Source: Mycobacterium phage prophiT36-1. Taken from it: a DNA stretch of 64,000 nucleotides. The DNA is taken from the sequence record OQ417966.1; one strand, given 5' to 3'. Below, one piece after another: positions 28,060-47,284 of the stretch. The translations under genes were made by a program, and so were the position numbers. The notes under the pieces are model-generated. The model made no database searches and was not told where the DNA came from. It was given only the letters and a program-made list of their open reading frames with translations. How positions within the stretch are numbered: position 1 is the stretch's first letter; each line of letters starts with the position of its first letter.

Positions 28060-30542
28060 AGACAGCACAGCTCGGTTCCCCAGGGCCAGTCGCGGCACCG
28101 GTTTCGTCCGACATCTTCGCCGACACCGAAGATGTATTCCTGTCCCGCCCGGACAGGATCGCTGGCGCCCCCGCATGCCTGTTTAGCGAGCAGGTATGGG
28201 ATGCGACGGGTGTGCTGCCTCGGCGCGCTAACATCGGCCGCCATCAATTGCGCATAATCTTTCCGCAGCATCCGGCGTGGTCGCTGCGGTCTCGTGAGAT
28301 TGCGATGACCTTGCTTAACAGCACCGACCCACGGTTGCTCGCACGATCGGTCTCCTTCGGCAGCCGTACGTTCTCCCTGGCGCATGTGCGATCGCGCTGC
28401 GAGACATACAAAACCGTGGCGGCGTGGCAGACAGCTCAAGGCTTACCTGACGACATTTCGGCCTGGGGCGCCCGCGACTGGGTAGCGATGGTCGAAGCCG
28501 AAATCGCCAGGGGCGTCAAAAACGGGACCGTGCGCAATCTCATCTGCGCTATCCGCGACCTTGTCTTCCTTGGGCCCATCTTGACTGGCGGCGGCATCGC
28601 ATCAGACCCATGGAACGGCAAGGCAACGAAACTCATCGCCAAAGGCGCCGTGGCAGGACGAACTGAAGTAATCGCCCCGGCACGTTGGATACCGCTGATA
28701 GGTGCGTGCTGGACATACATCGACACCTTCGCCGAAGACATCCTGAGTCTGCGTGTGAGCCATCAGTGTGACCTGCGCCCCGGCATGCCGGAATGGAGGC
28801 GCCGCTCGGAAGTAAGCGATGACGAGCTGCTCACCGCATACCTGGAGTCCTCCGGTGCCGTTATTCCCGCTAAGACTCGTGACGGTGGCCCGGACCCGAG
28901 CTGGTGGCGCCTATCCAAATTGGTAACCGCCGACCGGTCTTCGGCAATCTTCAAAGAAGACAGGGCAGCGGGGCGCCGCCGCAGAGAGATGGTGTATCAG
29001 GCGCTCGCCAACAACGTGGCCCGTTATGTAGCCCTCACTGCCAGTGAATTCGAAAATCTTTTGGCACAAGGGATTTCCAAGAAACTCGCGGGCAGCGATG
29101 CCGAGACCATAGTACGGATCCAGGGCGCCGACGAGATGCTCGATGCGTGGATTGACGCTGCCAGCAACCGAGTCGCAGTCACGTCCACAGAACTATGCAG
29201 CTCGCCGGGAAAGATCGCTGAAGACGACATCAATTGGGCATTGATGGAACGGATCGTGTTCCGTTCAGAAGGCGTGACTGGCCTGCTCGGGAAGGGCTGG
29301 GCAACCTCTGTCCGCCGCAGGCGCAAACTACTTAAACTCGCCCGCTCAGGCCGAGTTTTCGCATCCGCCAGTGGTGTCGGTGTGATGGGCGTACCGCGCG
29401 ACTGCACTGGCTTCACCCTAGTCGGCGCACCAGGCAGGCAGATCCCTTGGCGGGAATCAATGTCGGACTATGAGGCGCGGTGCGAACTGCGCGCCTTGCG
29501 GGCATCCTGCTATGTCTTCATCGCCGCGATAACAATGATGCGCGACAGTGAGATTCAAGATATGAAGCGAGGCTGTATACGTACCGATTACGGCGTCGCT
29601 TCTGTGAAATCACACCTTTACAAGGGGCGTTCGGGCAAGACGGTCGCACACTGGTGGATCATCGATGAAGTAGCCACAGCAATCAGAGTGCTGGAACGAC
29701 TCAGCTGTCATCCAGAGTATCTGTTCGCACGATTCGTCGACGGAGAACTCGAGAATCCTGAACCCGGTATCAGGTCAGGACTCGAGATTGCGTTTCTGCT
29801 CGATCATTTGGCGGCCACCGGCGCCCGAAGCGGGATCGCACCGGTGCCCGAGGGGCCCGTGATTTCCGCGCGAGCTCTGCGCCGTACCACTGCATCCATC
29901 AGCCGCGAACTGGGAGGCAACGAGCTTGCGGTAAGTCATCAACTCAAACACGCCATCAACTACGGCTACTCGAACGTTACCAGCGCCTATATGGCACCAG
30001 ACCCGGCATGGGCAGACCTGCTCAACACCAACAGGTCCGAGGACAACCTTGAGCACATGGTGACCGTCGTGCAGCAGTCCGCGCGCACCAGCGCCTCCTT
30101 GGCCGGTCGCGGCGGTGAGCGGCTGACCCAACAGATTGCCCAAGCGGTCGAACAGAGCGCAGGCCCTGGATACCCCGGTTCGGTGCTCTCCGATGAGGAG
30201 CTAGCCATCCTGCTGAGAAAAATCGCGCCGCAGATCCGTTTCGGACCTGCCAACGCGTGTCTGTACGACGAAGAGAACGCGCTATGTCGGCGCGATGCCA
30301 CCACCGAAATCCAGGGGCCGCTTCTGGGACTGTGTCAACCGTCGCGCTGCGCAAACTCGGTGATCGGTACCGAACACATGCCTGTGTGGGTCACCGAGTT
30401 GCAGACATTGCAGAAGACCATCGCCAGCCCCCGCGTGAGTCCGCCTCGACGACAGGCACTTTCAGAACGAATCACCGACGTACAGCACGTACTGAGCCAG
30501 CTCCAAACACGACCGCAAGCGGGCGACCATGGGCAGCCGTGA
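28056..30542 (+). CDS. Tyrosine recombinase-like protein, third member of the trio, 828 aa.
   Basis: GTGA start/stop overlap with gene B. C-terminal segment TMMRDSE (Arg I), KSHLYKGRSGKTV (Lys), ARALRRTTAS (box II Arg), VSHQLKHAINYGYS (His and Tyr). The large N-terminal extension is of unknown function. Confidence 0.6.
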   Translation: MKTAQLGSPGPVAAPVSSDIFADTEDVFLSRPDRIAGAPACLFSEQVWDATGVLPRRANIGRHQLRIIFPQHPAWSLRSREIAMTLLNSTDPRLLARSVSFGSRTFSLAHVRSRCETYKTVAAWQTAQGLPDDISAWGARDWVAMVEAEIARGVKNGTVRNLICAIRDLVFLGPILTGGGIASDPWNGKATKLIAKGAVAGRTEVIAPARWIPLIGACWTYIDTFAEDILSLRVSHQCDLRPGMPEWRRRSEVSDDELLTAYLESSGAVIPAKTRDGGPDPSWWRLSKLVTADRSSAIFKEDRAAGRRRREMVYQALANNVARYVALTASEFENLLAQGISKKLAGSDAETIVRIQGADEMLDAWIDAASNRVAVTSTELCSSPGKIAEDDINWALMERIVFRSEGVTGLLGKGWATSVRRRRKLLKLARSGRVFASASGVGVMGVPRDCTGFTLVGAPGRQIPWRESMSDYEARCELRALRASCYVFIAAITMMRDSEIQDMKRGCIRTDYGVASVKSHLYKGRSGKTVAHWWIIDEVATAIRVLERLSCHPEYLFARFVDGELENPEPGIRSGLEIAFLLDHLAATGARSGIAPVPEGPVISARALRRTTASISRELGGNELAVSHQLKHAINYGYSNVTSAYMAPDPAWADLLNTNRSEDNLEHMVTVVQQSARTSASLAGRGGERLTQQIAQAVEQSAGPGYPGSVLSDEELAILLRKIAPQIRFGPANACLYDEENALCRRDATTEIQGPLLGLCQPSRCANSVIGTEHMPVWVTELQTLQKTIASPRVSPPRRQALSERITDVQHVLSQLQTRPQAGDHGQP

Positions 30543-30927
30543 GGAAATCCGTGCCGCGATGGAACGCCTCCTAAACGGCGACGCCCAGCACACCGACGGA
30601 CGCCTAACCAAAACCAACCTTGCGGTAGAAGCCGGCGTGGGTCGGGCGACCCTCTACCGCCAGCACGACCTGATGGCCGAATGGGCGCGCCGCGTCACCG
30701 AATCAGACATCGCCCCACCCGCCGCGTCTGCCGCGGCCACGATCGCACACCTGACCCGACAGCTGGCCGACGAACGCTCCCGCCGCCGCGAATCCGACCG
30801 CATCGCCAACGGCCTGGCCTTCGTGGTAGCCGAGCTCTACCGCGCGCTAGAGGCTCGGACTCCCCCAAATTCTTCACGCGGCACGATCATCCCGATAAAC
30901 GCCAAAACGCGAAGGCGCGCAGACTAG
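30529..30927 (+). CDS. Small HTH protein, 132 aa, TetR-like, translationally coupled to the recombinase trio.
   Basis: 14-nt overlap with the end of gene C. N-terminal KTNLAVEAGVGRATLYRQH matches the TetR-type HTH signature (AG-V-x-x-x-T-L-Y). Confidence 0.5.
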   Translation: MGSREEIRAAMERLLNGDAQHTDGRLTKTNLAVEAGVGRATLYRQHDLMAEWARRVTESDIAPPAASAAATIAHLTRQLADERSRRRESDRIANGLAFVVAELYRALEARTPPNSSRGTIIPINAKTRRRAD

Positions 30928-30988
30928 CCTGAGCCCATTTCACATACGAGCGAATGAGTTCATTGCTGATCGAAGCAGTACGGGATTC

Positions 30989-33900
30989 GTGCGTGGGAGC
31001 GGTGCCCGCCATGAATGGACAGCGCCGGCATCTGATCGGGACCGTTCGAGCGCGACTTACGTGGGGAGAGGTTACGTGGCCGACAGCCAGGCACTTCGGA
31101 AAGTTCGGTATGCAGACAAGTTCCGGGGCTATCAGGGCCAGGCTATTGCTATGGCCCGGAAGTATCGGCGCAGCTTCCACGACGAGGACGGCGCGCAGGG
31201 GCTTGATGCCGCATTGGTTTACCACCCCACGGGTACGGGCAAGACAGCCGTCATTGCCGGTCTAACGCACGCGGCACACGAAATCGGCAATGTCCTGGTG
31301 CTGACCACACGCGAAGTCATACGTGATCAACTGGTGCGCGAGCTCAGCGGTGGCCTCTTCATTGACGAGAACAAGTTCGCGCTGCCCATGCGCCACAAAC
31401 TTTCTAAGGTCTGCTTCGCGGTGGCCGAGTCCCGCCAATTACTCGGCACAGCATTAGCGTTGCATGCGGCGACGCGAAAACGCATCCCCGACCAGGTGGT
31501 CCGGGAGTTCAGTCAGCGGCAGTTCGAGCGGCTTGCACCCGAGCCCGACATCGACATCGTGAGCCACTTGCATGAACAGAACTCTGTTCTCATTCTCACC
31601 GTCCAAATGCTGGCCCGCTTGCACCGAGGCCGCACCGGGCAGTCACCGATATACGACGTCTTGCGTCAACACGTAGACCTGGTCGTCTTCGACGAAGGAC
31701 ACTACGAACCTGCACCGCGCTACAGCGAGGCAGTGCGGGATCTAGGGCGCCCTACTGTGCTGTTGACCGCTACCCCTTTCCGTAACGACCTGAAAGCTTT
31801 TCGCATCACACCCGAGCATGTCGACATTTATCGATTCACCCAGGCGGTGCAGCAGCAGCACATCAGAGAAGTCCAGATCGTGCAGCGCACACCGACACGT
31901 GACCCGGACAAGTTCTGCGCCGATGTTCTCGATTTCTGCACATCGGTGTGGGGACCCGATCCAGGGCAGTGGACCCGCCGGATCATTATTCGCTGCGACG
32001 ATGTCGAGTGCGTAACACGCCTTGGCGAAGCATTCATAGCCCATGGCTTCAAGGACCGAGTCATCGGCATCCATGACCGCTACACCAACCCTGGGCAAGG
32101 CGACGGGCAGCCATGGCAATACCGCACAGTCCCAGCGCCGTCGGAAACCCAAGCACTAGTATGGATTCACCAGCATAAACTGCTAGAGGGCGTCGATGAT
32201 CATCGCTTCCAGATTCTGGCTTTCTTCAACCCACCGACCAATGTGCGCGCCATTGTCCAACAAATCGGCCGAGTCGTAAGGACCAAGCCTGGTGGCCAAG
32301 ACGCAGGCAACGCATACGTTTTGGACTATTTCGCCGGGCGCATCGCTAGATACTGGAGTCTATATCGCGGGTATGACGCTGCAGCCACGCCCGAGGCAGT
32401 CACTATGACCGCATCACGGTTCTACCTCACGAGATTCACCGCTGCACTGCCGCAGTTCGATTACATCGACCAAAAGTTTCGCCAGCGGCTCGATCTGTTC
32501 GACCACGACCAGCAAGCCCAGCTCACTGACACCATCGCCGACGAGATCTTCTTCAAGCGCACTGTGGCACTTAGACAGATACCAAACACCCTGACGATCC
32601 AGGACGTTGTCCCGCTTCTCGAGATCGCCCTTAAGGAAGGCGATTACGAGTACCAGCGATTCGATGTGTCGAAGATATGCCCCAATACCGCTCTATTCCT
32701 GTGTTCCCGGGTGAACAATGTCGACTTTCTCAACACTTACTTCTTCCCCGAGCCGCACCTAGAAGCCCGGCTCGTGATGCTCTTCCCAGAACACGCACTG
32801 CTGGCCTCGACAAGTACAGCAGGCGCATCGGTCAAAGATGGACTAGGGATTCTTGCGCGGTACGATCCGACCCGACTTGAGCGACTCCTATTGCCGGGCA
32901 ACGATAACCGGGGACGCATCACCAGCGTTTCCTCTAAGAACATGAACCTCAGTAGCCGGGCAGTGCGCGGTCGGGTCGTCTACGCAGCATCCATGGCTGA
33001 CATCCCGGCAGCCCTCGATGAGCACGGCCATGTCGTCTCCACGGTCACCGGCTACAACGGCTCGGCTCCACAGGTCATAGACCACCTCGAATACCAAGTA
33101 AGTGTGTTGGCCGATGAACTTGCCAGATCAGGGGCGACCACCGAAGGGCCTGGCACTGGTGCAACCCTTGTGCGCCGTTACGTGGGCATCGCAAGCGGTC
33201 ACGTGACTGAGTACCTTCCACCACTGCGCATCAAGGCATTCCGTACTTGGGTGCAATCACTGGCGAACCAGATGGATGACCCCGCACGCTATGACCGAGT
33301 CTTTAGTCGCTACGCCGAGCTCGCGGTAGGCGAGACGGTCTCGGGCGCAGCCCAGAACCTGCTATTGGACTTCACCGAGCTCACCGAGCTCTACCGGCAC
33401 CGCCTCACCGGCCAATGCGTTATCAGCGATGATGTGTGCGCCGACAGATTAGGCGATCCATACGGTACACCCGAACAGCCTGCGGCACAGTTCATCATGA
33501 CGATAAATGACACCCCATACACAATAGCCGCCACCTTCAACACCTCGTCCAAGCGGTACCGCATCGAGTGCCCGGCGCTCGACTATGACTTCATCCCGAT
33601 CGATGACCGCGACGGCTCGTTGATACGTGCGATAAACCAGATGCAGGCTTTCACGGTGGTCCCAGAGGACCGAGATCGCATCTACGCGCACGGGAGCTTC
33701 TATGCGCCGTCCCTGAAGTTCGGGCCAGACCGATTTAACCCCAACGGTTTCCCTATCGGACACCTGCTTTACCCCTCGCAACAGTTCAAGTCTAAAGAGA
33801 CAGAAAAAGGGGATAAAGTCATTGGCGGCAACCGTTACCAGACACACAGCCTGTTCGGCCTGATCGACAGCTGGAAGTCAGGTTTCGATACCGCAGAACT

Positions 33901-34474
33901 CGATCTCGACCCTCACTGGGTGCGGCGCAGTGGCTATGTCCCTGAATCGCTCTCGTTTTCACCCACTGCGCTCATCGTGGACGACATGGGTTGCGAATGC
34001 GCCGATTTTATTATTGCCGACACGCTCGGGCGGCGGGTTGTGCTGATTCATGGCAAGGCATCCGAGACGTGGCGCCCGTATTCGGCCTCAGCTCTGCAGG
34101 AGATCTGTGCGCAGGCTCAAAAGAACACAGCGCTGTTCTCCTCGCGTGAGCCCCGCATGCCGCCAAACATCACCTTGTGGGACAAGGCACACAACTTCAA
34201 CAACCTGTCGGTAGCTAAACGAATCCGGAAGCCGAACAGAGATACGGCGGAGAGGATTTGGCACGACCAACTGGCGCCGCTGTTAGCCAACCCACTCACT
34301 TCGCGCGAGATCTGGCTGGTGCTTGGCAACATGCTGTCGGCCTCAGAGATCATCGCGCAACTAAAGACTGACCGGCCTGCCGCCGAAGTCCTACAGCTAA
34401 CGCAACTACTGCACACCACAATGGAAGCCGCACGCGGCGTAGCAGCAAATCTGCGAATCTTCTGTTCGCCATAG
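30989..34474 (+). CDS. SF2 (ResIII/DEAD-like) helicase fused to a large C-terminal region with a putative PD-(D/E)xK-like nuclease motif, 1161 aa. Candidate single-protein defence helicase-nuclease.
   Basis: Helicase motifs in order: FRGYQGQAI (Q-like), HPTGTGKTAV (Walker A/I), LVVFDEGHY (II, DEGH), LLTATPF (III), QQIGRVVRT (VI). C-terminal segment IVDDMGCECADFIIADTLGRRVVLIHGKAS resembles D ... E-x-D ... K of restriction-endonuclease folds. GC is lower than in the phage module. The start codon is uncertain (GTG 30989 or the in-frame ATG at residue 55). Confidence 0.65.
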   Translation: MRGSGARHEWTAPASDRDRSSATYVGRGYVADSQALRKVRYADKFRGYQGQAIAMARKYRRSFHDEDGAQGLDAALVYHPTGTGKTAVIAGLTHAAHEIGNVLVLTTREVIRDQLVRELSGGLFIDENKFALPMRHKLSKVCFAVAESRQLLGTALALHAATRKRIPDQVVREFSQRQFERLAPEPDIDIVSHLHEQNSVLILTVQMLARLHRGRTGQSPIYDVLRQHVDLVVFDEGHYEPAPRYSEAVRDLGRPTVLLTATPFRNDLKAFRITPEHVDIYRFTQAVQQQHIREVQIVQRTPTRDPDKFCADVLDFCTSVWGPDPGQWTRRIIIRCDDVECVTRLGEAFIAHGFKDRVIGIHDRYTNPGQGDGQPWQYRTVPAPSETQALVWIHQHKLLEGVDDHRFQILAFFNPPTNVRAIVQQIGRVVRTKPGGQDAGNAYVLDYFAGRIARYWSLYRGYDAAATPEAVTMTASRFYLTRFTAALPQFDYIDQKFRQRLDLFDHDQQAQLTDTIADEIFFKRTVALRQIPNTLTIQDVVPLLEIALKEGDYEYQRFDVSKICPNTALFLCSRVNNVDFLNTYFFPEPHLEARLVMLFPEHALLASTSTAGASVKDGLGILARYDPTRLERLLLPGNDNRGRITSVSSKNMNLSSRAVRGRVVYAASMADIPAALDEHGHVVSTVTGYNGSAPQVIDHLEYQVSVLADELARSGATTEGPGTGATLVRRYVGIASGHVTEYLPPLRIKAFRTWVQSLANQMDDPARYDRVFSRYAELAVGETVSGAAQNLLLDFTELTELYRHRLTGQCVISDDVCADRLGDPYGTPEQPAAQFIMTINDTPYTIAATFNTSSKRYRIECPALDYDFIPIDDRDGSLIRAINQMQAFTVVPEDRDRIYAHGSFYAPSLKFGPDRFNPNGFPIGHLLYPSQQFKSKETEKGDKVIGGNRYQTHSLFGLIDSWKSGFDTAELDLDPHWVRRSGYVPESLSFSPTALIVDDMGCECADFIIADTLGRRVVLIHGKASETWRPYSASALQEICAQAQKNTALFSSREPRMPPNITLWDKAHNFNNLSVAKRIRKPNRDTAERIWHDQLAPLLANPLTSREIWLVLGNMLSASEIIAQLKTDRPAAEVLQLTQLLHTTMEAARGVAANLRIFCSP

Positions 34475-34510
34475 TTGTTGCTACAGAGTATAAATCAAGA
34501 TCTGCCGGAC

Positions 34511-34768
34511 TCAGTGGTCGGCGAAGAAGTCGCCCGCTGAAGCATCCAACGCCTCCGCAATGTCGACGAGGCGTTCATACAGAAGTCCCCGGCGGCCGTG
34601 CTCGACGTCAATGAGTACGTTGCGAGTCACACCCGACGCCAACGCGAGCGCCTCTTGAGTCAGGCCCCGCGCAAGACGCAACGCGCGGATGCGGGCGCCG
34701 ACCGCCTGCCGAGTATGTTCCCAGGCAATCACACGCTCGGGATCGTTCTGCTGAGGGCGGGTAGGCAT
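34511..34768 (-). CDS. XRE-family HTH transcriptional regulator, 85 aa.
   Basis: Classic HTH_3 signature LRLARGLTQEALALASGVTRNVLIDVEHGRR. Convergent with the helicase gene and divergent from the 246-aa gene. Confidence 0.75.
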   Translation of the reverse strand: MPTRPQQNDPERVIAWEHTRQAVGARIRALRLARGLTQEALALASGVTRNVLIDVEHGRRGLLYERLVDIAEALDASAGDFFADH

Positions 34769-34778
34769 TAACCCAGTT

Positions 34779-35519
34779 ATGGAGCGCCCGTACCAAAAGT
34801 CTGCCCTACTAGTAGTACATTGCTGTGTTGTGTTTGAATTCGATCCCGAAGATGCGTCTGTAGAGACTGTTTCGGCACTGGCCCTGGATGCGATGGACGA
34901 GCTGCGCAGGAAGTTGATCGAATGCCTTCTGGTGTTGCAAACGTTGTCTGATGAAGCTGATCTGAATTTCGTCGATCTAATTAGCGATCTGCAGGCCGTT
35001 CACCGAGGTACTCAAGAGGCGTATCGAGCAGCTAGTCTGGTGCATCAGGGTGCTCAGCTAGACGGCCGATGGGGTAACAGTTTGTCCAAGCCCAAAGCCG
35101 TTTTCGCTCGCCATAATTCAGCAGTGCGTCGCGGCGCCAAAAAGGTAATCCCGATGTCGGCACCATCTGACCTGGTGGAGCAGAGTTTGTATCACTTGCC
35201 CAAGCCCGACCGCGTTCAAGCAACCGTGGGTGACCGGCCCCAATGCGCGGGCACCGTTCGTTCCACAGGTGAAAGCTGTGCCAGCTCCGCCATGTATCTG
35301 GGTTCGGGAGCATTTGCAGCGCACTGTTATTCGCACGCTACTCCCGCTGAACGTGAGCGGTACAGGGTCTATCACAAGGAGATTGATGCGCGACGTGCGC
35401 GCACATATGACGATTTGCGCGAGCGTCAGTGGGCGGTCGGTCGCGAGATTCTCGCTCACTGGATCTCTAGTCGCGAACATGGCATCGAGTGGCTTGAGAA
35501 AGCTATCGCTGAAGTTTAG
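34779..35519 (+). CDS. Hypothetical protein, up to 246 aa, with a Cys/His cluster suggesting a zinc ribbon (C-x10-C ... H-C-x2-H).
   Basis: The ORF is divergent from the XRE gene; the true start is probably an internal ATG near 34893. Segment PQCAGTVRSTGESCASSAMYLGSGAFAAHCYSH. No known family recognised. Confidence 0.4.
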   Translation: MERPYQKSALLVVHCCVVFEFDPEDASVETVSALALDAMDELRRKLIECLLVLQTLSDEADLNFVDLISDLQAVHRGTQEAYRAASLVHQGAQLDGRWGNSLSKPKAVFARHNSAVRRGAKKVIPMSAPSDLVEQSLYHLPKPDRVQATVGDRPQCAGTVRSTGESCASSAMYLGSGAFAAHCYSHATPAERERYRVYHKEIDARRARTYDDLRERQWAVGREILAHWISSREHGIEWLEKAIAEV

Positions 35520-35876
35520 AAGCGCAGGGCGTTTTACTGCTCCTTCACGAGCGCACGGGCAGGAGTCACAACGATTCCGTCAGCCAATCGGACCGCGAGT
35601 GGGCTACGCCACGTAGAGCGAAGATCATTTACACAGATTGGGCATCTAAGTCTTTGCCCTGCGATGAAATGCTCGTTGTTTCGGACGACGCGCACCCATG
35701 ACGGAAGCTGCCGACAGGATGCCTACCCTTGGCCGAACGAAACATTGAGGCAGTCCTGCAAGCGCAGCGAGGACGGTCGGCGGGCCTCCAGTGTGCGGGC
35801 AGGACATCACGGTGATCTTGCGGGCTGTTGGGCTGGCCCGCTCTGCCTCGACGGCCCGTAAGGGCACGTAATTCGT

Positions 35877-37649
35877 TTGCTCTTTACGGGCGGTCGCGTA
35901 GCTTTGTTTTGTGTTCCTTTCCATCCGGGGCCATTGGCTTGCCGCTTTACGTATCTTGGACCGTTGGTGAAGCTGCGGCGCCTGACGCGGCGCGAAACAA
36001 ACGAGAGCCTGCGCCGGCGATGGGCATTTTTTCAGGCGCATCTTCGCGACGAATTTGTCCACTCCGCACAAGGCGAGCAGGTACTCAAGTACGCCTTTGA
36101 GTTGCGCCGGGTTAATCGGCCAGATACTGATGTCGAACATTTCAAGGCGGTGGTCGCTGCCGAGCGTGACGTGTGCGAGGCGCGGGCACGAGCAGCTCTA
36201 GACCGGGTGAACCCGGCCAGTGTTCTGGTGCTGGGGGTGATTCTTGAGCGCGCCGGTCAATCGCGTTACCGGCAGTTCCTGGGCGCGTTTGGGATGTCGC
36301 GGCTCGTATGGTTGATCGGAGCGGCCGGCGGGGGCACTGGACCTCTCGGTGAAGGTATTCGAGAGTTCTTCGATTGTGCAGTGCCCTGGTTAGCTGTTAC
36401 CGCATTGGAAAGTGAGCTGTGGTGGCAGCCCACGGGACGTGACCCTGATGATGCGACCGTGACAGCGGTTGGTTCGCGCATGGTCAATGCGCATACCCGC
36501 CTGTGGTGGGGCTCGTTGATGGTCGCGCGCTCACTGCTGCGGCAGGCACGCCGACCCGAGTTACCCGAAACGATCGTCCCGGAGCTGGTGCAGTATCTCG
36601 TCGCAGCCAACGGGGCCAACCTGCGCGAGCGCGCAGAATTCATTCTGCCGCCGCTGAGCACTCAGGCCCGCACATTTGCGACCGCATGTTCAGTGCGGGC
36701 CGGTCAGTACGCGGGCCGTCGGCTCGATGACCTGGTCAATACCCGCATTGACGGTGAGAGCTCGGGTGGGCAACCGTGCGAGACTTACCCGTTCATTCTC
36801 GTAGGTGAGCAGCTCGTGCCGGCCACGATCTATGTCTTGCGCGGCAGCCTGCACGTTATGTTCGTGGACTACCTGCGTAGAACGCTCAAAGACGAAGGCT
36901 CCCAAATCTTTGAGCGCACGTGCGGGGACCTGATCCGTGAGCTGCTGGGCACGGACGGTGAAATGCTCACCGACGTCAATATTCGGATATCCCATGCGGA
37001 ACGAAAACATAAGGGCCAAACTGATTTCGCGGCACTTTGGCAATCAGTCCTGCTTATCGGGGAGGTTAAGGCTGCGTTGGAGCCGGTCTTGCCACGTAAA
37101 TCTGGGGCGTCCTATGACCGTGACGTGGGTAAAGCATTCACGCAGCTCAATGAGCGATTGGCCGCCGCAGCTGCCGGAAGCTCGGTGTCGGCGGCCGGTC
37201 GGATGGTTAAGGCCGAAGAATATTCACAAGTGCGAGGACTTGGGGTGGTGATGCACGATTTCGGCGGCGAGATCTGGCGGCATAGAGCACATGGCGGGAA
37301 GTTCAAAGACTCTGCAAGACTGCCGATTATTACGGTCCAGGACCTCGCAGTGATCGCTCACACATTGAGCGGGATGGATGAGTTTCTCCGGTACCTGGAC
37401 TTCCGTCAGCAGCTCCTGGGGGCAGGTGTGCGGGCTATGGAGGAGTTCGACATTCTCGCCGGTTTCCTGGCGCGAGGCCCGGGCCCGGGTCAGCAGCTTA
37501 CTCGTGCGCAGAGGCGTGCGACACGAAATGGCAAAGGGCACATCAGGCTTGCGGCCCGCGCTGTTCCCTTGTCTTTGCAGCATGTCTTCGAGCCGCCGGT
37601 GGATAAAGCTGGCTGGCGTCAGATCGTCGCCGGAATGCCCAGGGTCTGA
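35877..37649 (+). CDS. Hypothetical protein, up to 590 aa, with a PD-(D/E)xK-type nuclease motif; candidate effector or partner of the downstream OLD-family gene.
   Basis: Segment ERTCGDLIRELLG ... GQTDFAALWQSVLLIGEVKAALEP fits E ... D-x12-E-V-K of the restriction-endonuclease fold. Same strand and adjacent to the 601-aa gene. The start is uncertain (the N-terminal ~60 aa look non-protein-like). Confidence 0.45.
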   Translation: MLFTGGRVALFCVPFHPGPLACRFTYLGPLVKLRRLTRRETNESLRRRWAFFQAHLRDEFVHSAQGEQVLKYAFELRRVNRPDTDVEHFKAVVAAERDVCEARARAALDRVNPASVLVLGVILERAGQSRYRQFLGAFGMSRLVWLIGAAGGGTGPLGEGIREFFDCAVPWLAVTALESELWWQPTGRDPDDATVTAVGSRMVNAHTRLWWGSLMVARSLLRQARRPELPETIVPELVQYLVAANGANLRERAEFILPPLSTQARTFATACSVRAGQYAGRRLDDLVNTRIDGESSGGQPCETYPFILVGEQLVPATIYVLRGSLHVMFVDYLRRTLKDEGSQIFERTCGDLIRELLGTDGEMLTDVNIRISHAERKHKGQTDFAALWQSVLLIGEVKAALEPVLPRKSGASYDRDVGKAFTQLNERLAAAAAGSSVSAAGRMVKAEEYSQVRGLGVVMHDFGGEIWRHRAHGGKFKDSARLPIITVQDLAVIAHTLSGMDEFLRYLDFRQQLLGAGVRAMEEFDILAGFLARGPGPGQQLTRAQRRATRNGKGHIRLAARAVPLSLQHVFEPPVDKAGWRQIVAGMPRV

Positions 37650-38019
37650 ACTCGCCGCAGGACCCGGGAACGGCCGACCTCCGCTAAGCCTGCCTGCCCA
37701 GTGCATCGGTGGGTCGGTAGTGGTTTGGGACTGTGTCTGATTGCCAGCCATTCGGATTGGGCGAGCTATGCCTGACAGTTCGCACCTGACTCTCGCTGTC
37801 AGTTGTCGCCCACATACCGCTCCAACGCTATCCAGACTGGTCCTGGCACTTCCGAAGTAGCGACGTACTGTGATCTTTCAGTTCAGAACAGTGTTTACGC
37901 GGGGGTCCTTCGCGGCAGCTCCTCGCAAAGTCGGCGGCCGGTAGATATTGTGTCGCACTGCGACAACAATCAGATTCAGATCCCACCGTCTACCTGTCGC
38001 GTCTAACTGAGGGGGTTCC

Positions 38020-39825
38020 ATGACGGCTGAGCCAGCACCGCTCGGCGAAGGCATCGCCGAGCACTTCGGGTTTGCTATTGCGGGGGTCAGAGTCGGTGAT
38101 GGTGAGATGCTCGACTTGCCTGGAGCGGGGAGCGTCATAGCTGTTGTGGGGGCGAACAATGCCGGAAAGTCCACGTTCCTACGTCAATTGCAGGAGATCT
38201 TGGCGTGGCACGGACTCACCAAGGAAATGACGCCCCGCGTTGTTACGGAAATCGCGGAGCCATGGGTTGGTTCGGTCGAAGATTTCACCGCGTGGCTGAT
38301 CGCTAACGCCCAGATTGACGAGCACACGGGTCTAAGGAATGTGACCCGCAACGGCACTCACCCGCAAATACCGTTGCAGAACACTGCCTCGATCCGGAAC
38401 CAACCCACACCTGGCGCTGTCCTGCACTGGTTTGTCGGCAATCATCAGCCAGGCGACCGGCAACACGCCTGTTCGATGTCAGGTAGAGCTGACCCGGCAG
38501 GATTACCCCCACAGACACCCATGCAGGCCCTGTTCGCAGACATACCGAAACGCAAAAAGGTGATTGACCTCGCTGCCCGCTTGTTCGGCGTTCAACTGCA
38601 CTTCGATACCGTCAGTGCGTCTATCGGCTTCCGTATCGGCAAACCCGACTTGCCGGCGCCAAACGTTAACGAGATAGACGCTCAGTATGCTCGCGCGGTT
38701 GGAAAACTGCCACCTCTGATCGAACAAGGTGACGGCATCAAGTCAGCGCTCGGCCTCTTGATCCCTCTGATTACCAACGCGAACCCGCTGTCGATCGTGG
38801 ACGAACCCGAGGCCTTCCTCCACCCACCGCAGGCAGAGCTTCTCGGCTTCGAGATAGGGAAAATTGCTCGGGACAACAGATCCCAGGTTGTCCTCGCGAC
38901 TCACGACAAGAATCTTCTGCAGGGGATCGCGAGGAGTGGAGCCCCCGTATCGATTATTCACTTACAGCGAGCTGGAGACACCACGACGGCTATTCGTCTC
39001 GGGGCCGAAGATATCGAAGACCTCTGGAAAGATGTGACCCTTCGGTATGGCAATGCGCTCGACAGCCTATTTCATCGCGCGGTCGTCATCACCGAAGGTG
39101 ATCGGGATTCGCACTTTTTTCGTGCGGCGATTGATGCGGTTCATGAGGGCATACACCCGCAGCCTCCCGCACACAACCTGATGTTTCTAAGCAGCTATGG
39201 CAAGCAGAACATGGCGCACATCGTCGAACGTCTTCGAAAGCTGGGCGTACGGGTCGTCACATCTCCCGACCTCGACATTCTCAACAACGAAACGCTGCTG
39301 CGCCGGCTCGTTGTTGCCCACGGCGGCGACTGGAACTCGATCATGCAGCTTTACAAGCAGGCAACGAACGAATTCCTCGGTCCTGCAAAGCCTCCCACGA
39401 TCGACGACGTACGCACAAAGATTGATGACGCCCTGAGTAAATCGACCGATGGCGTCTTGGACAGGCCTTTAGCTCAGGCGCTAGCTGTGGCCGTTGCGCT
39501 CCCAACAACAAACTGGGGCAAGCTAAAAGAGGCCGGCACCCGGGCATTTAATGCAGACAAGAAATCGGCGACTGAACTTCTGGATGCTCTGGACGCGATC
39601 GGCATCGTTGCCGTCAAGGTCGGGGAGCTGGAAAAGTTTGTAACAAACGCTAACCCGCCAAAAGGCCCCGAGTTCCTCCCTGTCGCCTTCGCTGCGGGAG
39701 CGCACATCGCGCCGGAGGCAGGGGAACATGCAAATCGGCTATTGATAGCAGCCGGAATCACGGTTCCAGAGACGCGCCCTGTTCACGATCAATGCTTGCC
39801 CGCATGCGCCCAGACCTCAGGCTGA
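38020..39825 (+). CDS. OLD-family nuclease (overcoming lysogenization defect; P2 Old-like, class 1 architecture): N-terminal ABC ATPase plus C-terminal Toprim domain, 601 aa.
   Basis: Strong SD gaggggg. Walker A VVGANNAGKSTFL. OLD/ABC Walker B signature LSIVDEPEAFLHPPQ. H-loop VVLATHD. Toprim glutamate AVVITEGDRDSHFF. Toprim DxD VVTSPDLDILN. This order and spacing are diagnostic of OLD-family ATPase-Toprim proteins. Confidence 0.8.
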   Translation: MTAEPAPLGEGIAEHFGFAIAGVRVGDGEMLDLPGAGSVIAVVGANNAGKSTFLRQLQEILAWHGLTKEMTPRVVTEIAEPWVGSVEDFTAWLIANAQIDEHTGLRNVTRNGTHPQIPLQNTASIRNQPTPGAVLHWFVGNHQPGDRQHACSMSGRADPAGLPPQTPMQALFADIPKRKKVIDLAARLFGVQLHFDTVSASIGFRIGKPDLPAPNVNEIDAQYARAVGKLPPLIEQGDGIKSALGLLIPLITNANPLSIVDEPEAFLHPPQAELLGFEIGKIARDNRSQVVLATHDKNLLQGIARSGAPVSIIHLQRAGDTTTAIRLGAEDIEDLWKDVTLRYGNALDSLFHRAVVITEGDRDSHFFRAAIDAVHEGIHPQPPAHNLMFLSSYGKQNMAHIVERLRKLGVRVVTSPDLDILNNETLLRRLVVAHGGDWNSIMQLYKQATNEFLGPAKPPTIDDVRTKIDDALSKSTDGVLDRPLAQALAVAVALPTTNWGKLKEAGTRAFNADKKSATELLDALDAIGIVAVKVGELEKFVTNANPPKGPEFLPVAFAAGAHIAPEAGEHANRLLIAAGITVPETRPVHDQCLPACAQTSG

Positions 39826-40244
39826 TACGACCGCGACGCCGGCTACTGACCTTGCGGACGTGCTCAATACAAGTGCTCAGTTGCGCGCGGAGCTAATCTG
39901 CAGTTGGGTCAGGTATGTACTCGATTGTCGCTTATGGTGGTTGGCGAGTGGTATTGAATCGTGGGGGACAGGGTTATCTTTAGGCATGTACTTGTCGGTG
40001 TATATGGCTGGTGCTAACGGATTTCAGCGCTGTGAATGTTTTATTCGGCCGAGCATCTCAGCCTTCGGGGCAAGCGATCAGTTTCTCCACGGCTGCTGGT
40101 CGAACCTCGACATGGATTCGTCTGAGGCCTGCAACAGGTGGCACTAACCCGACCTCTATCCATGCGGATACTTAATCGACATCCGCGAGAGCGGCACCCT
40201 GTTCGCGCGACCCCAACTGGCGTTCCTACCCAGCTACGGGCATA

Positions 40245-41039
40245 TTGCTGCCAAATCTGTTGGTAAACACCAGTTTACGGCTTTCGCCGTATACACCAAT
40301 TCTCGTGCGAAGAGACGCATCTGAAGCGCTCCCAGCCTCTCCGGTCGCAGGAAAGAAAATACTCTGGCCGATACGTGGTTCGATTATGCCCATGCATGGT
40401 TTCCCTTTGGCCCCAGGCTCTTTGGGCTACAAGCGCTGCCACCTCACCGTCGGGGGAGAGTTTCGACTGTCACAGACTGATTGTTGCGATGCCGGCCAAG
40501 ACGAGTTGTTCGGCGTCCTCGACGACCGATCAGCTGTGGTGTTCATCCACCCAAACGCGCTTCCCGCTGCGCCACCTGACGGCGTACCGCCGTTCGCGGT
40601 CGACTTCCTGCTGGACACCACTCGCGCGGCCTACCTGTTAGTGCATAACGGCATTCGTGCGCGGTTTCCGAATACCCATTTCATACTCAGCCACGGCGGG
40701 GGCTTCGTGCCTTACGCCTCCCACCGGATGGCATTCTCGCTCGAATTGGAAACCGGTAACCCCGCTGAGGAGATGCTGGCATTGTTGTCGAGCTTCTATT
40801 TCGACACGGCCGTGACGTCCAGCCCTGCATCCTTGCCGAGCCTGCTGGCCTTCGCCGACTCCGGCCATGTCGTCTACGGATCGGATTGGCCCTTCCTACC
40901 TGCCGACGCCGCTAGGAGGTTCACCGGTAATCTGGGTCGTTACCTTGGATTAGATGATCGGGCCCGCGCCGCAATCGATCGCGGCAACGCCGAAAAGATC
41001 TGGGGAACACCGCCGCCAACCCGTGACGAGGTCGGCTAG
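40245..41039 (+). pseudogene. Amidohydrolase-2 (PF04909-like metal-dependent hydrolase) gene fragment, 5'-truncated; it lacks the N-terminal HxH metal-binding motif.
   Basis: Contains family signatures VVFIHPN, FILSHGGG and VVYGSDWPF only in the last ~165 aa of the ORF. The first ~100 aa of the ORF have no HxH and look non-homologous. Preceded by a 420-bp lower-GC non-coding stretch. Confidence 0.5.
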
Positions 41040-41612
41040 TCGGCGGGCAGGCGCTGTGGCCGACAAGGATCGGGCCAACAAGCAACCGCCAACATCAGGG
41101 CGCTCTCAGAGTATCGCGATCGCGCCATCCACCTGTACAACGCCCAGGGTCTTGGCGCGCGTTCGTGCTGGTCGTAGCTTCCGTCGGGATGGATGAGAGG
41201 TCAGGCGCACCCCAAGCCGATCAGCACTCGATTGCCGTTGTTCGCCGGTATTCTGGGGTAGGTTGCGGCGTCCGTATTCCGTCTGGCTGATTCATGAAAA
41301 CCCGCTTGCTTGCATCAGGTTTTGAAGATTGAGACGAACCGCCGAGGGACCGAGCAGAGGCTGCTGAACTACTAGGTGCTGCCCCCCGGTGAATTCGCCC
41401 GTCGACCGGTTGACTGTCAGCGCCCGGTGCGCCTTCCCCGAGCAATAGACATCCAGAGCAGCGGAGCCGAGTTAGCGCTTGTAGTGGCAAGCAATTACCC
41501 CTTCAGAATCGAACTCTGAGCGAGCTATGTTTGCGAGCCAGCACCGAACGCCGCTCGACCGCGATCGGCACATAGTGCCCGGCCATCGGCCGGGCTGCGA
41601 GATGATTGATCT

Positions 41613-41963
41613 ATGCGGTACATCAAGCGAACCAACACTGTGGAACTGACGGCTCGAAACGTCACCGCGCTGCTCGCCAAGCTCGACGACAGACTTTCCG
41701 CTCGTACACTGATTTCACCTGACGACGACTTCGTCGTGCGAGCCATAGAGAACAACGTCAGCCTCGACAGTGCCGAGCCGCCAAAGGCGGTCCCTGTCCA
41801 TACAACGGTGACGCTTACCCGCGACGACCTGTGGTACCTGACCACGCCGGGCGCGACGCTTACCCACGGCGCATTTACGTTGCGGTCTGTTACGGACGAA
41901 GCGCACTACAGCGATCGCGCCCCTGGAGCTGTCTACATGCCCGAGTCCGGGGTTCAGTGGTAG
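41613..41963 (+). CDS. Hypothetical protein, 116 aa.
   Basis: ORF in a lower-GC accessory region; no motif. Confidence 0.3.
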   Translation: MRYIKRTNTVELTARNVTALLAKLDDRLSARTLISPDDDFVVRAIENNVSLDSAEPPKAVPVHTTVTLTRDDLWYLTTPGATLTHGAFTLRSVTDEAHYSDRAPGAVYMPESGVQW

Positions 41964-42116
41964 CAAATACCGTATGACGACGACCGTCCCACGAGCTCCG
42001 GAAGGGCACTCCCCTCCCGCCGCGAGGCTGCGAGCAGCCGCACCATACATCGCGGGTGTTGACCAAACCAGTTGGTGAACTCGAGCTAGTAGCAACCCAG
42101 GTCCCGACAGACGATC

Positions 42117-43721
42117 GTGCTGTCGGCGCCAGCAGGCACACTGAGTGTCGTGGGCACAGATCTGGAGGTCTATAGGCGCGGGGCCCCATGGACACCGCAA
42201 GAGATCACTGAGCTCATCGAGCGCATCCGCGCAGGGTCAGGCCGCACCGACATCGCGCGCACCCATGGCCGCACACCCGGGGCCCTCGACGCGGTAGCCT
42301 GGCGCCTCCTGTCAGCAGACCACAGACCTGAAAAGAAGACCCGCCAGGCAGTGGAGTTGCTACGTGCCGAGATCAACGACATCTCCGCAGGGGCAGAGAC
42401 GGATTGGTGGGCGCGCTATCTCCAAGGCCGCAAGATAGCCAACGCCGCGAAACCCGCAAGAACCAGGTCTCCCCAGGCGCCCAAAACGACTGCGACACCG
42501 AAAACCCCCAAACCGCTTCTGCCACTACCGGAGTGTGTGCAAACGTTCGCCGAGCAGCCAGCAATTGACTGGACGCAGCCAGGGACGGAAAGCGAACTTG
42601 GCCTACTGATCGTTCAAGTCGTCAACGAGATCGTGGACCCACGGAACCGATACATCATGGCCCGGCGACTCGGATTGATCGACGGATCAAATACTTTGGA
42701 ATCCATCGGCGAAACACTGAACCTAACCCGCGAACGGGTCCGCCAACTACAAAACACCGCGATCACACAGGTCCAGCACGACGCACACCGCCTCGGATCG
42801 GCCGCCGCAACGCTCGCAGTGGTCTTCAACTTCCTCGATAAGGACCCCACCGCAATCGAGGCACTGGCCCAATCCTTGTTGACCGCCGCACAAGAGCTAT
42901 TCAGCTGCCAACCGACCTGGCTTATCAAATCCGTCAGCCGCATGGGCGGGCGCACACCACGACAGGCTGACGAGATCGCCGCGGCAGCTGCGGCGATCCG
43001 TGACGCCGAACGTCGGCGCGGACGCGAACTTGCCCATGAACAACGGCAGATCCTCACCTGCGATCGCATCGTCGACAAATGGATTCACGCAGCCACCTGG
43101 CCCCCGCACCTGAAACACGCCGATTCCGAGCGCAGCACACAACGGCGCCGAATGCCAACGCCCTCAGGAATTGCCTCCGTCGGCTCTTTCGATTCCGAAA
43201 AGAACGGCACCGTTGTCCATTTCGAATCCCTACTTGAAGAATCCGTGTTCATCACCGCCGAAGGCAGCGACAAGATCCTCACCTATCAAGAGCAGCCCTG
43301 CCAGATCGCATACATCGGGGAGGACGGGCAATCACACACGTACTACCCTGACCTACTCCTGACGCTCAACGATGGCCGCATGCTGCTAGCCGAGGTCAAG
43401 CCACTTTGGCAGATGGCATTGACCACTAATCGCATCAAATGCGAAGCAGCGCAACGCTATGCGGCACAAACTGGATGGGGATGGGTATCGGTTGGCTCCA
43501 GCGGCCAAGCCTACCGAGACCTTGAACAACGAGATATCAGTGACTTGACGCGCGCATCGCTTACCGCGGCGCTCAACGAAGGCCCGGTGTCCTGGGCGCA
43601 CTTGCAGGAGCTACGAACTCAGGCGCCAATCACAGCGATGGACGTCGCGGCATTCGCCGTGCAAGAAAACATAGGGCTTGAACTGTTTCCATATCGCCTG
43701 TACCACGTCAACGACGTGTGA
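42117..43721 (+). CDS. DNA-binding protein with a sigma-70 region-4-like HTH and a C-terminal TnsA/PD-(D/E)xK endonuclease-like domain, 534 aa.
   Basis: RNRYIMARRLGLIDGSNTLESIGETLNLTRERVRQLQNTAI resembles the sigma-70 region 4 HTH. C-terminal YYPDLLLTLNDGRMLLAEVKPLWQ fits PD ... E-V-K. The Pro/Lys/Thr-rich linker is low-complexity. Confidence 0.45.
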   Translation: MLSAPAGTLSVVGTDLEVYRRGAPWTPQEITELIERIRAGSGRTDIARTHGRTPGALDAVAWRLLSADHRPEKKTRQAVELLRAEINDISAGAETDWWARYLQGRKIANAAKPARTRSPQAPKTTATPKTPKPLLPLPECVQTFAEQPAIDWTQPGTESELGLLIVQVVNEIVDPRNRYIMARRLGLIDGSNTLESIGETLNLTRERVRQLQNTAITQVQHDAHRLGSAAATLAVVFNFLDKDPTAIEALAQSLLTAAQELFSCQPTWLIKSVSRMGGRTPRQADEIAAAAAAIRDAERRRGRELAHEQRQILTCDRIVDKWIHAATWPPHLKHADSERSTQRRRMPTPSGIASVGSFDSEKNGTVVHFESLLEESVFITAEGSDKILTYQEQPCQIAYIGEDGQSHTYYPDLLLTLNDGRMLLAEVKPLWQMALTTNRIKCEAAQRYAAQTGWGWVSVGSSGQAYRDLEQRDISDLTRASLTAALNEGPVSWAHLQELRTQAPITAMDVAAFAVQENIGLELFPYRLYHVNDV

Positions 43722-44117
43722 CCGACGTTCGCCGTCAACCGTTGCGGGAATGCGCCCCGTGAGATGAGTATTCGCCCATCGGCGGCCGCCCATGGGCACT
43801 CGTATGGATACATACACGATGGGTACTCACCCAAACAGGTACCCAGCTGCGCGGGCGACGCGAGCCGGCGTGCCATCTCGGATTCCTAGCTAATCCAATG
43901 CTTGGGCTGTTTCTGCGCACATGTCACACATATACTGATCGCCACGTAGCTGCAGGTTACGCATCGGTTCGGTACTAAGCCCGCCTGTGACGCTCGATAT
44001 AGCAAACATAGAGATCTCGCAGACGCCTGGACATAACCCAGTTTATTCTGTCATGATTCTCGCATCAGCTGCACCCACACGCGGTGTACAGCAAGTATCG
44101 GGAGGGGCAAGCTGCGC

Positions 44118-45305
44118 ATGATTATGAGTGATCTTTGGCGCATGTCGACGGGTTTGCGTAGAGCTTCGGCGGTGGTCGCCGGTGTGGCGCTAGCCTTCGG
44201 TGGAGCGAAGGTGACCAGCGACCACACCGTGCCTGGCAGCGGGTTTTCGACACTCCAGACAGCCGCTGCGGATCCGACCGGTCCCACGGGTGGCCCTGGC
44301 GGGGGGCCGGGTGGGATGAATGGATCCCAGTTCCAGCCCCCAGGCTTGCCGCCGCAGATGCCTGACTATCAGGGCGGTATCAACCAGCCGCCGTTAGATC
44401 AGAATTCTGGTATCAGCATCTACAACACGGGATCGCCAGGAGCACAGCAAGTTCCATCGCAGCAAGGTGCACAACAGTCTCAACAGGGGCAGCAGCCTGC
44501 GCACGGAACCCAAATCCCTGATTATCAAACAGCAACCCCATACACTCAGGGTCCCGGTACGGAGAATCCGGATTACCAAGCACCACAACAGAATTCTCCC
44601 CAGCAGGACCATCAGCAAAATAATGCTCCCACGCAGACTCAGCAGCCCAGTCAAAAAGACCAGCAGGACCGCGAACTGCAACAGCAATGTCAGCAACAGG
44701 CTCAGTATTACGGTCTTGCTGAACAGATGGCCAGCTTTATCGCGTCGGCAATGGGTGGTGCCGGGAGCCTCTTCGGGCAACCCAGTCGCCAGTGGGGGCC
44801 TGCCTTTGAATGCAGTTGCGCACCTGAGCAGGGTGGCCCCCATAAGCAATCACCTGGCGACGATGAAACAAGTCAGCCGTGCGTACCAACCGATGGCATT
44901 CCAAAAAGGATCGTGGGCGCGGATTACACCTACAATTTGGCCACACAACAACTATCCTGGTTAGGCACTTTCCCAGGTTTGATGCCGTTCTCGGGAACCG
45001 TAAGTGTGGCTCCCGGCGCCTCAGTTTTCATACCGGGCAACGCCCAATGGACAAGCGCGACTTTGACAATCTGCCAAGCGCCCTCCGAAGGCCCTAGCGG
45101 TCGCAATCCAGCGCAAGATAAGCTCCTAACCAAGGGAGACATCAAGAAGTTGGAGGACGCCGGATTTGACGTTCACGAGCTTAAAGGCGGTAAGAACGCC
45201 TCGAAGTTCGATCTGTACAAGGACCGAGAGGGAAATATCTACGTGAAGCCAAAAGGCGGGCGTGGCGAGGGCGATCCGCTAGGGATAAATATCAATGACA
45301 TCTGA
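44118..45305 (+). CDS. Secreted Pro/Gln-rich protein with an N-terminal twin-arginine-like signal peptide and a compact C-terminal toxin-like domain, 395 aa.
   Basis: N-terminus MSTGLRRASAVVAGVALAFGGAKV (RR followed by a hydrophobic core and A-x-A). Long P/Q/G low-complexity middle. Distinct C-terminal domain ending GGKNASKFDLYKDREGNIYVKPKGGRGEGDPLGININDI. Followed by a small overlapping gene. Confidence 0.4.
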   Translation: MIMSDLWRMSTGLRRASAVVAGVALAFGGAKVTSDHTVPGSGFSTLQTAAADPTGPTGGPGGGPGGMNGSQFQPPGLPPQMPDYQGGINQPPLDQNSGISIYNTGSPGAQQVPSQQGAQQSQQGQQPAHGTQIPDYQTATPYTQGPGTENPDYQAPQQNSPQQDHQQNNAPTQTQQPSQKDQQDRELQQQCQQQAQYYGLAEQMASFIASAMGGAGSLFGQPSRQWGPAFECSCAPEQGGPHKQSPGDDETSQPCVPTDGIPKRIVGADYTYNLATQQLSWLGTFPGLMPFSGTVSVAPGASVFIPGNAQWTSATLTICQAPSEGPSGRNPAQDKLLTKGDIKKLEDAGFDVHELKGGKNASKFDLYKDREGNIYVKPKGGRGEGDPLGININDI

Positions 45306-45705
45306 GCTCGATCCTTCCAGTATTCCCGTTATCAGAACGCTGCTGAACATTACGGGCTTGTTTGACCCCGACACATTTACAGCTGCAGTTTTACTGACGC
45401 CAACACGGACTGTGCGTGCAGGAGAAGCGCGCTCTCCACAACTCGCCTTCACTGAAGACGCCTGGAAAATTGACCTCGGCAAGCACGAGGCCGTCCACTT
45501 AGAGAGCGAAATGGATCGGCTACTCGCCCTGCTTTTACCAGTGGGTGAGAGATTCCGCGAAACTGTGGCAGCGATGGGCCTCAGCGCCGAAGTAGCATTT
45601 CAGTGCAGTGCGGACGCGGGATACTATCCTTCAATATCTTTGCGCCATGACCAGATAAAGCAGCTAGCTGCCCTTGGGCTTTCGCTCGATATTGACATTA
45701 TCTAG
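45295..45705 (+). CDS. Small cytoplasmic protein, 136 aa, overlapping the end of the toxin-like gene; immunity-protein candidate.
   Basis: 11-nt overlap with the upstream gene (translational coupling). No signal peptide. Confidence 0.3.
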   Translation: MTSELDPSSIPVIRTLLNITGLFDPDTFTAAVLLTPTRTVRAGEARSPQLAFTEDAWKIDLGKHEAVHLESEMDRLLALLLPVGERFRETVAAMGLSAEVAFQCSADAGYYPSISLRHDQIKQLAALGLSLDIDII

Positions 45706-45755
45706 ATAGCAGACCGGAATTACGGCTGCTACCGATTATATTCATTCGAGGGGAT

Positions 45756-47177: not shown

Positions 47178-47284
47178 AACCGACGAAGGTCATCCTGAAC
47201 TCCGTTAGCGTCGAAGGTTGTCCGACAGGTGGTTTCGCGCATCCGCTACGCCGGTTCACCATTTGTACGGAGATGCAGAAGTAG
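47160..47284 (+). pseudogene. Diverged 3' remnant (last ~40 codons) of a paralogue of the lipoprotein gene at 45756-46322.
   Basis: The translation PNRLKPTKVILNSVSVEGCPTGGFAHPLRRFTICTEMQK aligns with PRKIKPTKIVLDSTTLDSCPDGGYPHPVRKFTVCTETQD, including both Cys and the stop position. No upstream remainder of the gene is present. Confidence 0.45.

Follow-up and report, generated by a model that had tools for sequence, protein, structure and literature searches.

Genes neighbouring an OLD nuclease on a GInt-like island in a Mycobacterium abscessus prophage are probably separate cargo and not one defence module

We analysed a stretch of 64,000 nucleotides (nt) from the record of Mycobacterium phage prophiT36-1 (OQ417966.1; called the window throughout), in which a block at positions 34511-39825 encodes a regulator of the XRE family on the minus strand and then, on the plus strand, a Cys/His protein of 246 amino acids (aa), a PD-(D/E)xK nuclease and an OLD-family nuclease (Table 1). 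The initial annotation had described this order of open reading frames (ORFs) correctly and saw in it a possible multi-gene module. It seems, with a probability of about three in four, that the block is separate cargo of a 22.8-kb GInt-like island in an M. abscessus prophage, and that it consists of three independent units and not of one system. A real module would have defined a fifth class of OLD enzymes, and the data lend no support to one. What the region offers is a further case of what is already known, with a class 1 OLD and other defence-type cargo carried by a mobile island; the family of the PD-(D/E)xK protein, which is probably 560 aa long, is previously unnamed.

Gene neighbourhoods of the block and its homologues

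Neighbourhoods were compared for 82 OLD loci, namely 80 homologues (27-54% identity) with 8-kb flanks from a species-representative genome set, and those of M. setense (84%) and M. simulans (73%). Hidden Markov models (HMMs) of the 590-aa family (named after the longest ORF of the nuclease) and of the 246-aa family found no match within 8 kb on either side in the 82 loci, and tblastn with both families found none in the 80 loci from the genome set. When the ORFs of 150 aa or more that lie up to 3.5 kb from the OLD gene were clustered, the largest neighbour family occurred in 4/82 loci. The conserved partnership of OLD with a PD-(D/E)xK and a Cys/His protein that had been suggested was therefore not recovered, as neither family is present in any of the 82 loci and no neighbour recurs. 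Unrelated genes also surround the closest OLD relatives that were looked up (84%, 73% and 54% identity), with a gene for an MMPL transporter upstream of the 54%-identical one. A 524-aa gene upstream of the M. setense OLD was considered as a diverged member of the 590-aa family and was ruled out by BLASTP and the family HMM.

The settings of the 590-aa family elsewhere give a similar picture. Around the member in M. holsaticum lie SNase and Fic/VbhA genes and unrelated genes of about 95-123, 544-590 and 248 aa, and on a metagenome contig the neighbours differ once more. A third member (P0174) lies among TIR, RelA/SpoT, Lsr2 and DUF5677 genes in an integrase-bearing island, and a fourth (P0190) on a short contig where the genes downstream are on the opposite strand and which carries nothing upstream. 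None of these four settings holds an OLD gene or a member of the 246-aa family. NACHT is also among the gene types found around members of the 590-aa family elsewhere. According to the initial annotation, the module would not stand if homologues of the 246-aa and 590-aa genes never occurred together with OLD-family genes in other genomes, and essentially no such co-occurrence was found.

The arrangement of XRE, 246-aa, 590-aa and OLD genes is itself present in copies that are all more than 99.9% identical, so that they represent one event and not independent conservation. Within the block there are 447 nt between the 246-aa and 560-aa genes and 370 nt before OLD; the recombinase genes of the same island overlap. 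The three intergenic regions share no operator-like repeats beyond short ones at chance level. Scans of both gaps for promoters and terminators, which were not tuned to mycobacteria, gave 0 promoters and terminator-like sites at the number expected from shuffled sequence. About 400 nt of non-coding DNA precede each gene, and each is probably transcribed separately.

The OLD enzyme

The third plus-strand gene had been called an OLD nuclease, and Pfam, PADLOC and a profile match to the OLD of Thermus scotoductus (TsOLD) agree with this. The ATPase part matches Pfam AAA_21 (3e-12) and AAA_15, and the Toprim part matches OLD-like_TOPRIM over the cutoff (2.8e-6) in a region that aligns to the Toprim domain of TsOLD. 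Walker A (G44-x-N46-N47-x-G49-K50), Walker B (D261-E262) and H295 of the H-loop are invariant in 12 homologues, as are E359, D363, D417 and D419 of the Toprim domain. More than 1000 homologues were found, mainly in Actinobacteria.

Among the PADLOC models the protein matches Old at 3.3e-19 versus 1e-8 for the GajA models, and among solved relatives its profile matches TsOLD (6p74) at E=4e-12 versus 1e-5 for the OLD of retron Eco8; phmmer reaches 6p74 at E=3.5e-4. No UvrD/PcrA-like gene, reverse transcriptase or AriB-type Toprim gene is adjacent to the OLD gene, and there is no Rfam match; a retron-associated enzyme of class 3 was ruled out on the lack of a reverse transcriptase and of an Rfam match. 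Following the class definitions of a review (PMC10568477), the enzyme is from its sequence best read as a stand-alone OLD of class 1, because it has no conserved partner, TsOLD is its best solved relative and the PADLOC Old model scores far above the GajA models. As such, an ABC-type ATPase fused to a Toprim nuclease would act without a dedicated partner and would nick or degrade invading DNA, presumably as P2 Old, TsOLD and the Vibrio cholerae OLD do. A class 1 OLD is thus placed inside a dense defence island of the clinically important M. abscessus, in which phage therapy is in use and determinants of phage resistance matter.

The PD-(D/E)xK nuclease

The lengths of 590 and 246 aa given earlier for the first two plus-strand genes are right as open frames; of the proteins, the former is probably shorter, with 560 aa, and the latter is often annotated with 229 aa. 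The start of the nuclease at GTG 35967 is taken from public annotation and from the alignment of homologues. A word-index search with the 590-aa protein returned 3 clusters. The HMMER profile search covered 1.84 billion representatives and gave 102 relatives at E<=1e-3, 62 of them at E<=1e-10, mostly of 500-570 aa. The ten named clusters that were looked up are from Mycobacteroides, Rhodococcus, Arthrobacter, Blastococcus and Sciscionella, all of them Actinobacteria.

The E...D-x12-EVK motif was an essential part of the earlier proposal, which required it to be conserved in homologues. In 41-53 distant relatives E316, D353, E366 and K368 (E316...D353-x12-E366-V-K368) are invariant, and Q393 is at least 90% conserved. 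The protein has an N-terminal helical domain of about 270 aa and a C-terminal restriction-endonuclease fold, in which the conserved E...D...(D/E)xK residues sit on an alpha-beta-beta-beta-alpha-beta core. Both fold and active site thus confirm that it is a PD-(D/E)xK nuclease. It has no match in Pfam, NCBIfam, PADLOC or PHROGs, tblastn against phage and plasmid collections gave none, and the helical domain has no informative structural match. With the catalytic cores of Card1 and Upx the family profile gives a weak match (E about 0.05). A search for related loci with the alignment of close members returned one contig, which was already known, and nothing in IMG/VR.

By analogy with Upx and Shedu the 560-aa protein is probably a solitary defence nuclease. 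The N-terminal helical domain would probably act in sensing or in auto-inhibition, and the C-terminal domain would cut nucleic acid; both the defence role and the mode of activation are drawn from these two systems. It is possible, although on the whole doubtful, that the protein is the first of an as yet undescribed family of anti-phage nucleases encoded by single genes (helical sensor and PD-(D/E)xK effector) and that the XRE and zinc-cluster pair serves as a conserved anchor or regulator of a defence hot spot in three-recombinase islands among the rapidly growing mycobacteria. In a bolder variant the 246-aa protein would be a dedicated partner of the nuclease; the co-localisation of the two families in M. 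chelonae that is described below hints at it. The family is small and unannotated, its structural model is confident and its active site invariant, which makes its members candidates for defence screening in mycobacteria.

The XRE regulator and the zinc-cluster protein

The divergent XRE and 246-aa genes would form a unit of their own, conserved in related mycobacterial islands, which marks the slot in which defence genes gather and may have a part in regulating it. The regulator matches Pfam HTH_3 (6.8e-12) and the PADLOC models Control_protein and capH. The 246-aa family comprises about 50 homologue clusters, all of them from Mycobacteroides or Mycolicibacterium. Its Cys/His cluster (C-x10-C-x15-C-x2-H), which the initial annotation had pointed out, is conserved in 29 homologues with C156, C167, C183 and H186 invariant and H182 at least 90% conserved, and it is therefore real and under selection. 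The AlphaFold2 (AF2) model of the protein (pLDDT 83.9) gave generic helical structural matches. No match was found in Pfam, NCBIfam, PADLOC or PHROGs, or by tblastn in the phage collection.

In many annotations the start of the 246-aa gene is set about 17 codons further in, which gives the 229 aa. The first 17 codons of the long ORF (MxRPYQKSALLVVHCC; window 34769-34830) are conserved in many homologues and disordered in the AF2 model, and this conserved stretch may be a divergent promoter/operator instead of coding sequence.

In six of the related loci (L011 and L013-L017 in our numbering) a homologue of the XRE regulator (65-74% identity) lies beside a 246-family gene or not far from it, and such a homologue is adjacent or nearby in most, though not all, of the 246-family loci inspected. 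The 246-family gene recurs in related three-recombinase elements without an OLD or 590-family gene (L009-L012). In L011 it adjoins Kiwa, and in L013-L015 a complete Gabija pair (GajA and the GajB helicase) lies 4.6 kb away. This class 2 GajA is the sole OLD-family gene near a 246-aa homologue elsewhere, and at such a distance the pair fits a hot spot and not a module. Some 246-family genes are directly flanked by the element's own TnsA-like gene. The XRE and 246-aa pair thus behaves as a conserved anchor of a variable defence slot in mycobacterial islands; perhaps it also regulates this slot. The anchor could be used for finding further defence cargo in these islands. A CapH/CapP-type pair was considered and ruled out, as there is no HExxH motif and no match to a peptidase (Peptidase_M78).

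A separate observation concerns Mycolicibacterium fluoranthenivorans (L016, 5796-12422), in which a 246-family gene is bordered by a 1142-aa HNH-NACHT (Avs-like) protein and, at its other end, by an IetA-like AAA ATPase that has a 200-aa partner. Upstream are an XRE homologue and a primase-polymerase of the LigD type. This is a further defence-rich setting of the anchor.

The island and its other cargo

The element of 22,768 bp that carries the block is bounded by 7-bp terminal inverted repeats (GTTATGT...ACATAAC), and two copies meet head to tail in the joint ACATAAC-GCGGGGG-GTTATGT. A wrap-around of a circular record was ruled out as the source of the repeat, since the first 24.7 kb are unrepeated. 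The array may be genuine, through tandem integration or amplification of the island, or it may be an artefact of assembly.

Upstream of the island, the 19.7 kb queried (window 5,000-24,700) are 100% identical to the tail-gene region of the M. abscessus T48 prophage that is recorded as Mycobacterium phage prophiT48-1; 32,000 has to be added to a window position to obtain that in the record. The match ends at 24,741, within prophage gene 81 and a short way upstream of lysin A. Other genomes of M. abscessus carry the element within a chromosomal gene for a T2SSE-type ATPase, precisely at the Walker A codons. Several genomes share an identical insertion point, and where loci were aligned in full (L006-L008) the identity of the element exceeds 99.9%. 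The prophage site (GGTAGGGGGAAG) agrees with the chromosomal attachment (att) site (GGCGCGGGCAAG) in 8/12 positions and is read as a secondary integration site of the island. The first recombinase is listed in 830 blocks of the index searched. Exact searches of IMG/VR for the junction of prophage and element and for the joint between copies gave no match. With at least 45 kb added to a 65-kb prophage, the insertion probably disables the prophage. A jump of the island, as an exact tandem array, to a site just upstream of the lysis genes may have crippled the prophage, and it shows that the island is active.

The lower content of guanine and cytosine (GC) that had been noticed in the block holds against the phage genes (0.589 versus 0.650 in the prophage). 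It does not hold as a trait of the block, since the whole 22.8-kb element has 0.590 and low GC thus marks the entire island. The horizontal origin proposed for the block is supported, as it lies inside a lower-GC mobile element.

The first recombinase has a clear match to Pfam Phage_integrase (9e-12) and the second and third a weak one (0.01 and 0.0045); according to NCBIfam the recombinases are XerC/D-like. The last ORF of the island stops 331 bp short of the right end. The cargo includes a 1161-aa helicase that matches Pfam ResIII (6.5e-13) and SWI2_SNF2 and whose residues 989-1161 match the PADLOC single-gene candidate PDC-S71 (2e-25). A homologue of it is absent from all OLD-homologue loci examined, and it is probably another defence gene of the island.

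Other cargo was observed downstream of the block. At 44118-45705 a 395-aa protein with a C-terminal Ntox33 domain (3e-28) is followed by an overlapping gene for a 136-aa DUF4279 protein, and the two look like a polymorphic toxin with its immunity gene. A 534-aa protein is a fusion of sigma-70-region-4 and TnsA-like parts. The segment 40990-43769, which holds the end of an amidohydrolase gene, a 116-aa gene (PHROG 2702) and the 534-aa fusion, is 97% identical, inverted, to positions 8749-11525 of L009, an element whose recombinases are just 55-65% identical to those of the island in the window. By comparison of the two sequences this indicates modular exchange or inversion between islands. The 264-aa amidohydrolase ORF (40245-41039) matches the C-terminal part of Amidohydro_2 (profile positions 128-288 of 289); the gene is truncated and is probably a captured fragment.

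Table 1. Positions in the window of the genes of the block, of the island that carries them and of its second copy
Feature	Position	Strand	Description
XRE-family helix-turn-helix (HTH) regulator	34511..34768	-	85 aa; divergent from 246-aa gene
Cys/His helical protein	34779..35519	+	246-aa ORF; alternative start ~34830
PD-(D/E)xK nuclease	35967..37649	+	Probably 560 aa from GTG 35967; longest ORF 35877-37649, 590 aa
OLD-family ATPase-nuclease	38020..39825	+	601 aa; Pfam AAA_21, AAA_15, OLD-like_TOPRIM
Recombination module	24783..30927	+	Three overlapping tyrosine-recombinase genes (462, 657, 828 aa) and small fourth gene
Small fourth gene	30529-30927	+	132 aa
SF2 helicase-like protein	30989..34474	+	1161-aa ORF (annotated 1132 aa from 31076); convergent with XRE
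Integrative element, copy 1	24741..47508		22,768 bp; exact tandem-repeat boundaries; whole block is cargo
Integrative element, copy 2	47509..64000		Cut by window end; 0 mismatches over 16,492 bp at offset 22,768
XRE, 246-aa, 590-aa and OLD genes, second copy	57279..62593		Exact identity at offset 22,768
ORFs of second copy	57547-58287; 58645-60417; 60788-62593		246 aa; 590 aa; OLD
Insertion of island in prophage	24720-24760		Locus L001 ~4741; OQ417964 position ~56740

Alternative explanations

Several points weigh against the reading of the block as three independent units. The three genes are co-oriented and adjacent in an element that is widespread in M. abscessus, and they may conceivably cooperate in this one lineage. 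On a 333,959-bp contig of M. chelonae, a member of the 246-aa family (BKG69_15945) lies at a distance of four locus tags from one of the 590-aa family (BKG69_15965); it is the one independent case besides the island in which the two families were found close together, and BKG69_15965 is 29% identical to the protein of the window. Five independent contexts of the 590-aa family were sampled out of about 100 clusters. Separate transcription is probable from the spacing of the genes only, the promoter and terminator scans having detected neither in the two gaps. The hot-spot model itself predicts coincidences such as the pair in M. chelonae.

It is conceivable, but unlikely, that one or both of the 560-aa nuclease and the 246-aa protein work for the element, for example in control of excision, replication of the circle or choice of target, and not in phage defence. 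The 246-aa family belongs to the backbone of related three-recombinase elements, even of near-cargo-free ones (L009-L012), and integrative elements are often switched by an XRE regulator together with a small partner. The 590-aa family, however, is found outside such elements too, most of the related ones lack it, and its neighbours elsewhere are typical defence and toxin genes. The 246-aa protein may well have such a service, which would be compatible with the block being separate cargo.

Somewhat less probable still is a two-gene unit of the 246-aa protein and the 560-aa nuclease under XRE control, for instance a zinc-cluster sensor or adaptor with its effector, to which OLD would be an unrelated neighbour. 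In its favour, the distance between the two families is no more than five genes both in the window and in M. chelonae, two divergent settings whose 246-aa members are 56% and whose 590-aa members are 29% identical. Nevertheless, most of the 246-family loci inspected (L009-L017) have no 590-family gene, and the 590-family loci L002-L005, L098/L099 and L106 have no 246-family gene. The 590-aa family also reaches Rhodococcus, Arthrobacter, Blastococcus and Sciscionella, in which no member of the 246-aa family was found, and the 447-nt gap between the two genes speaks against a common unit.

One multi-component system of all four genes, a new class of OLD with PD-(D/E)xK and zinc-ribbon partners, would agree with their co-oriented and adjacent position downstream of a divergent XRE gene, with the arrangement being kept in all copies of the M. 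abscessus element and with the known multi-component OLD systems, which all pair OLD with another enzyme (PMC10568477), but it is very improbable given that the near-identical copies are one evolutionary event, that partners are missing from all the OLD loci and OLD from the sampled settings of the 590-aa family, and that the long intergenic gaps share no repeats.

Comparison with known systems

Defence hot spots flanked by anchor genes are known from P2 and P4, and XRE regulators of the CapH or C-protein type travel with varied defence systems. The XRE and 246-aa pair resembles these in that it is constant and the adjoining defence systems differ by genome. It differs from CapH/CapP systems in its 246-aa partner, which is not a metallopeptidase of the CapP type.

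As a single-protein nuclease the 560-aa protein can be likened to Upx (PDB 9WUF) and to Shedu SduA (PDB 8PS4), although it has no significant sequence homology to either. Upx is a single protein of 1212 aa with two nuclease domains and a middle domain (PMC13099982), in contrast to one nuclease domain in 560 aa here, and the profile match to it (E=0.049) covers the catalytic core only. From Shedu the protein is set apart by having no match to the DUF4263/Shedu model of Pfam or to SduA of PADLOC.

With the OLDs of class 1 (P2 Old, the Thermus scotoductus OLD of PDB 6P74 and that of Vibrio cholerae) the enzyme of the window shares the lack of a dedicated neighbouring partner, and TsOLD is its best solved relative. 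The Vibrio cholerae enzyme reportedly acts alone in phage defence (PMC12392090). The old gene of P2 is carried by a prophage and so is the one described here, on a mobile element nested in a prophage. In sequence the enzyme is just distantly related to the characterised members and comes from an actinobacterial clade. Genes of class 1 have been described as not lying near other defence genes, and in this the OLD of a dense defence island differs from the class as reviewed (PMC10568477). Gabija, retron Eco8 (class 3) and PARIS (class 4) have in common with it the ATPase-Toprim protein family. Unlike in Gabija, the neighbours of this OLD are the 560-aa nuclease and the truncated amidohydrolase, and the helicase 3.5 kb upstream of it is of the ResIII/SNF2 type.

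The island is a GInt-like integrative element. The gene order of its recombination module matches ginABCD of the GInts (Bardaji et al. 2017, PMC5385486), and GinC gives a weak integrase-domain match as do the second and third recombinases here (PMC5385486). The likeness is one of architecture, comprising the recombinase trio and small gene at the 5' end, variable cargo, a short 3' end and an insertion that is probably site-specific, here at the Walker A codons of the T2SSE ATPase gene. The main text of the GInt paper names neither Mycobacterium nor Actinobacteria (PMC5385486). In contrast to the GInts, the island is also found at a secondary site inside a prophage, where it stands in exact tandem copies.

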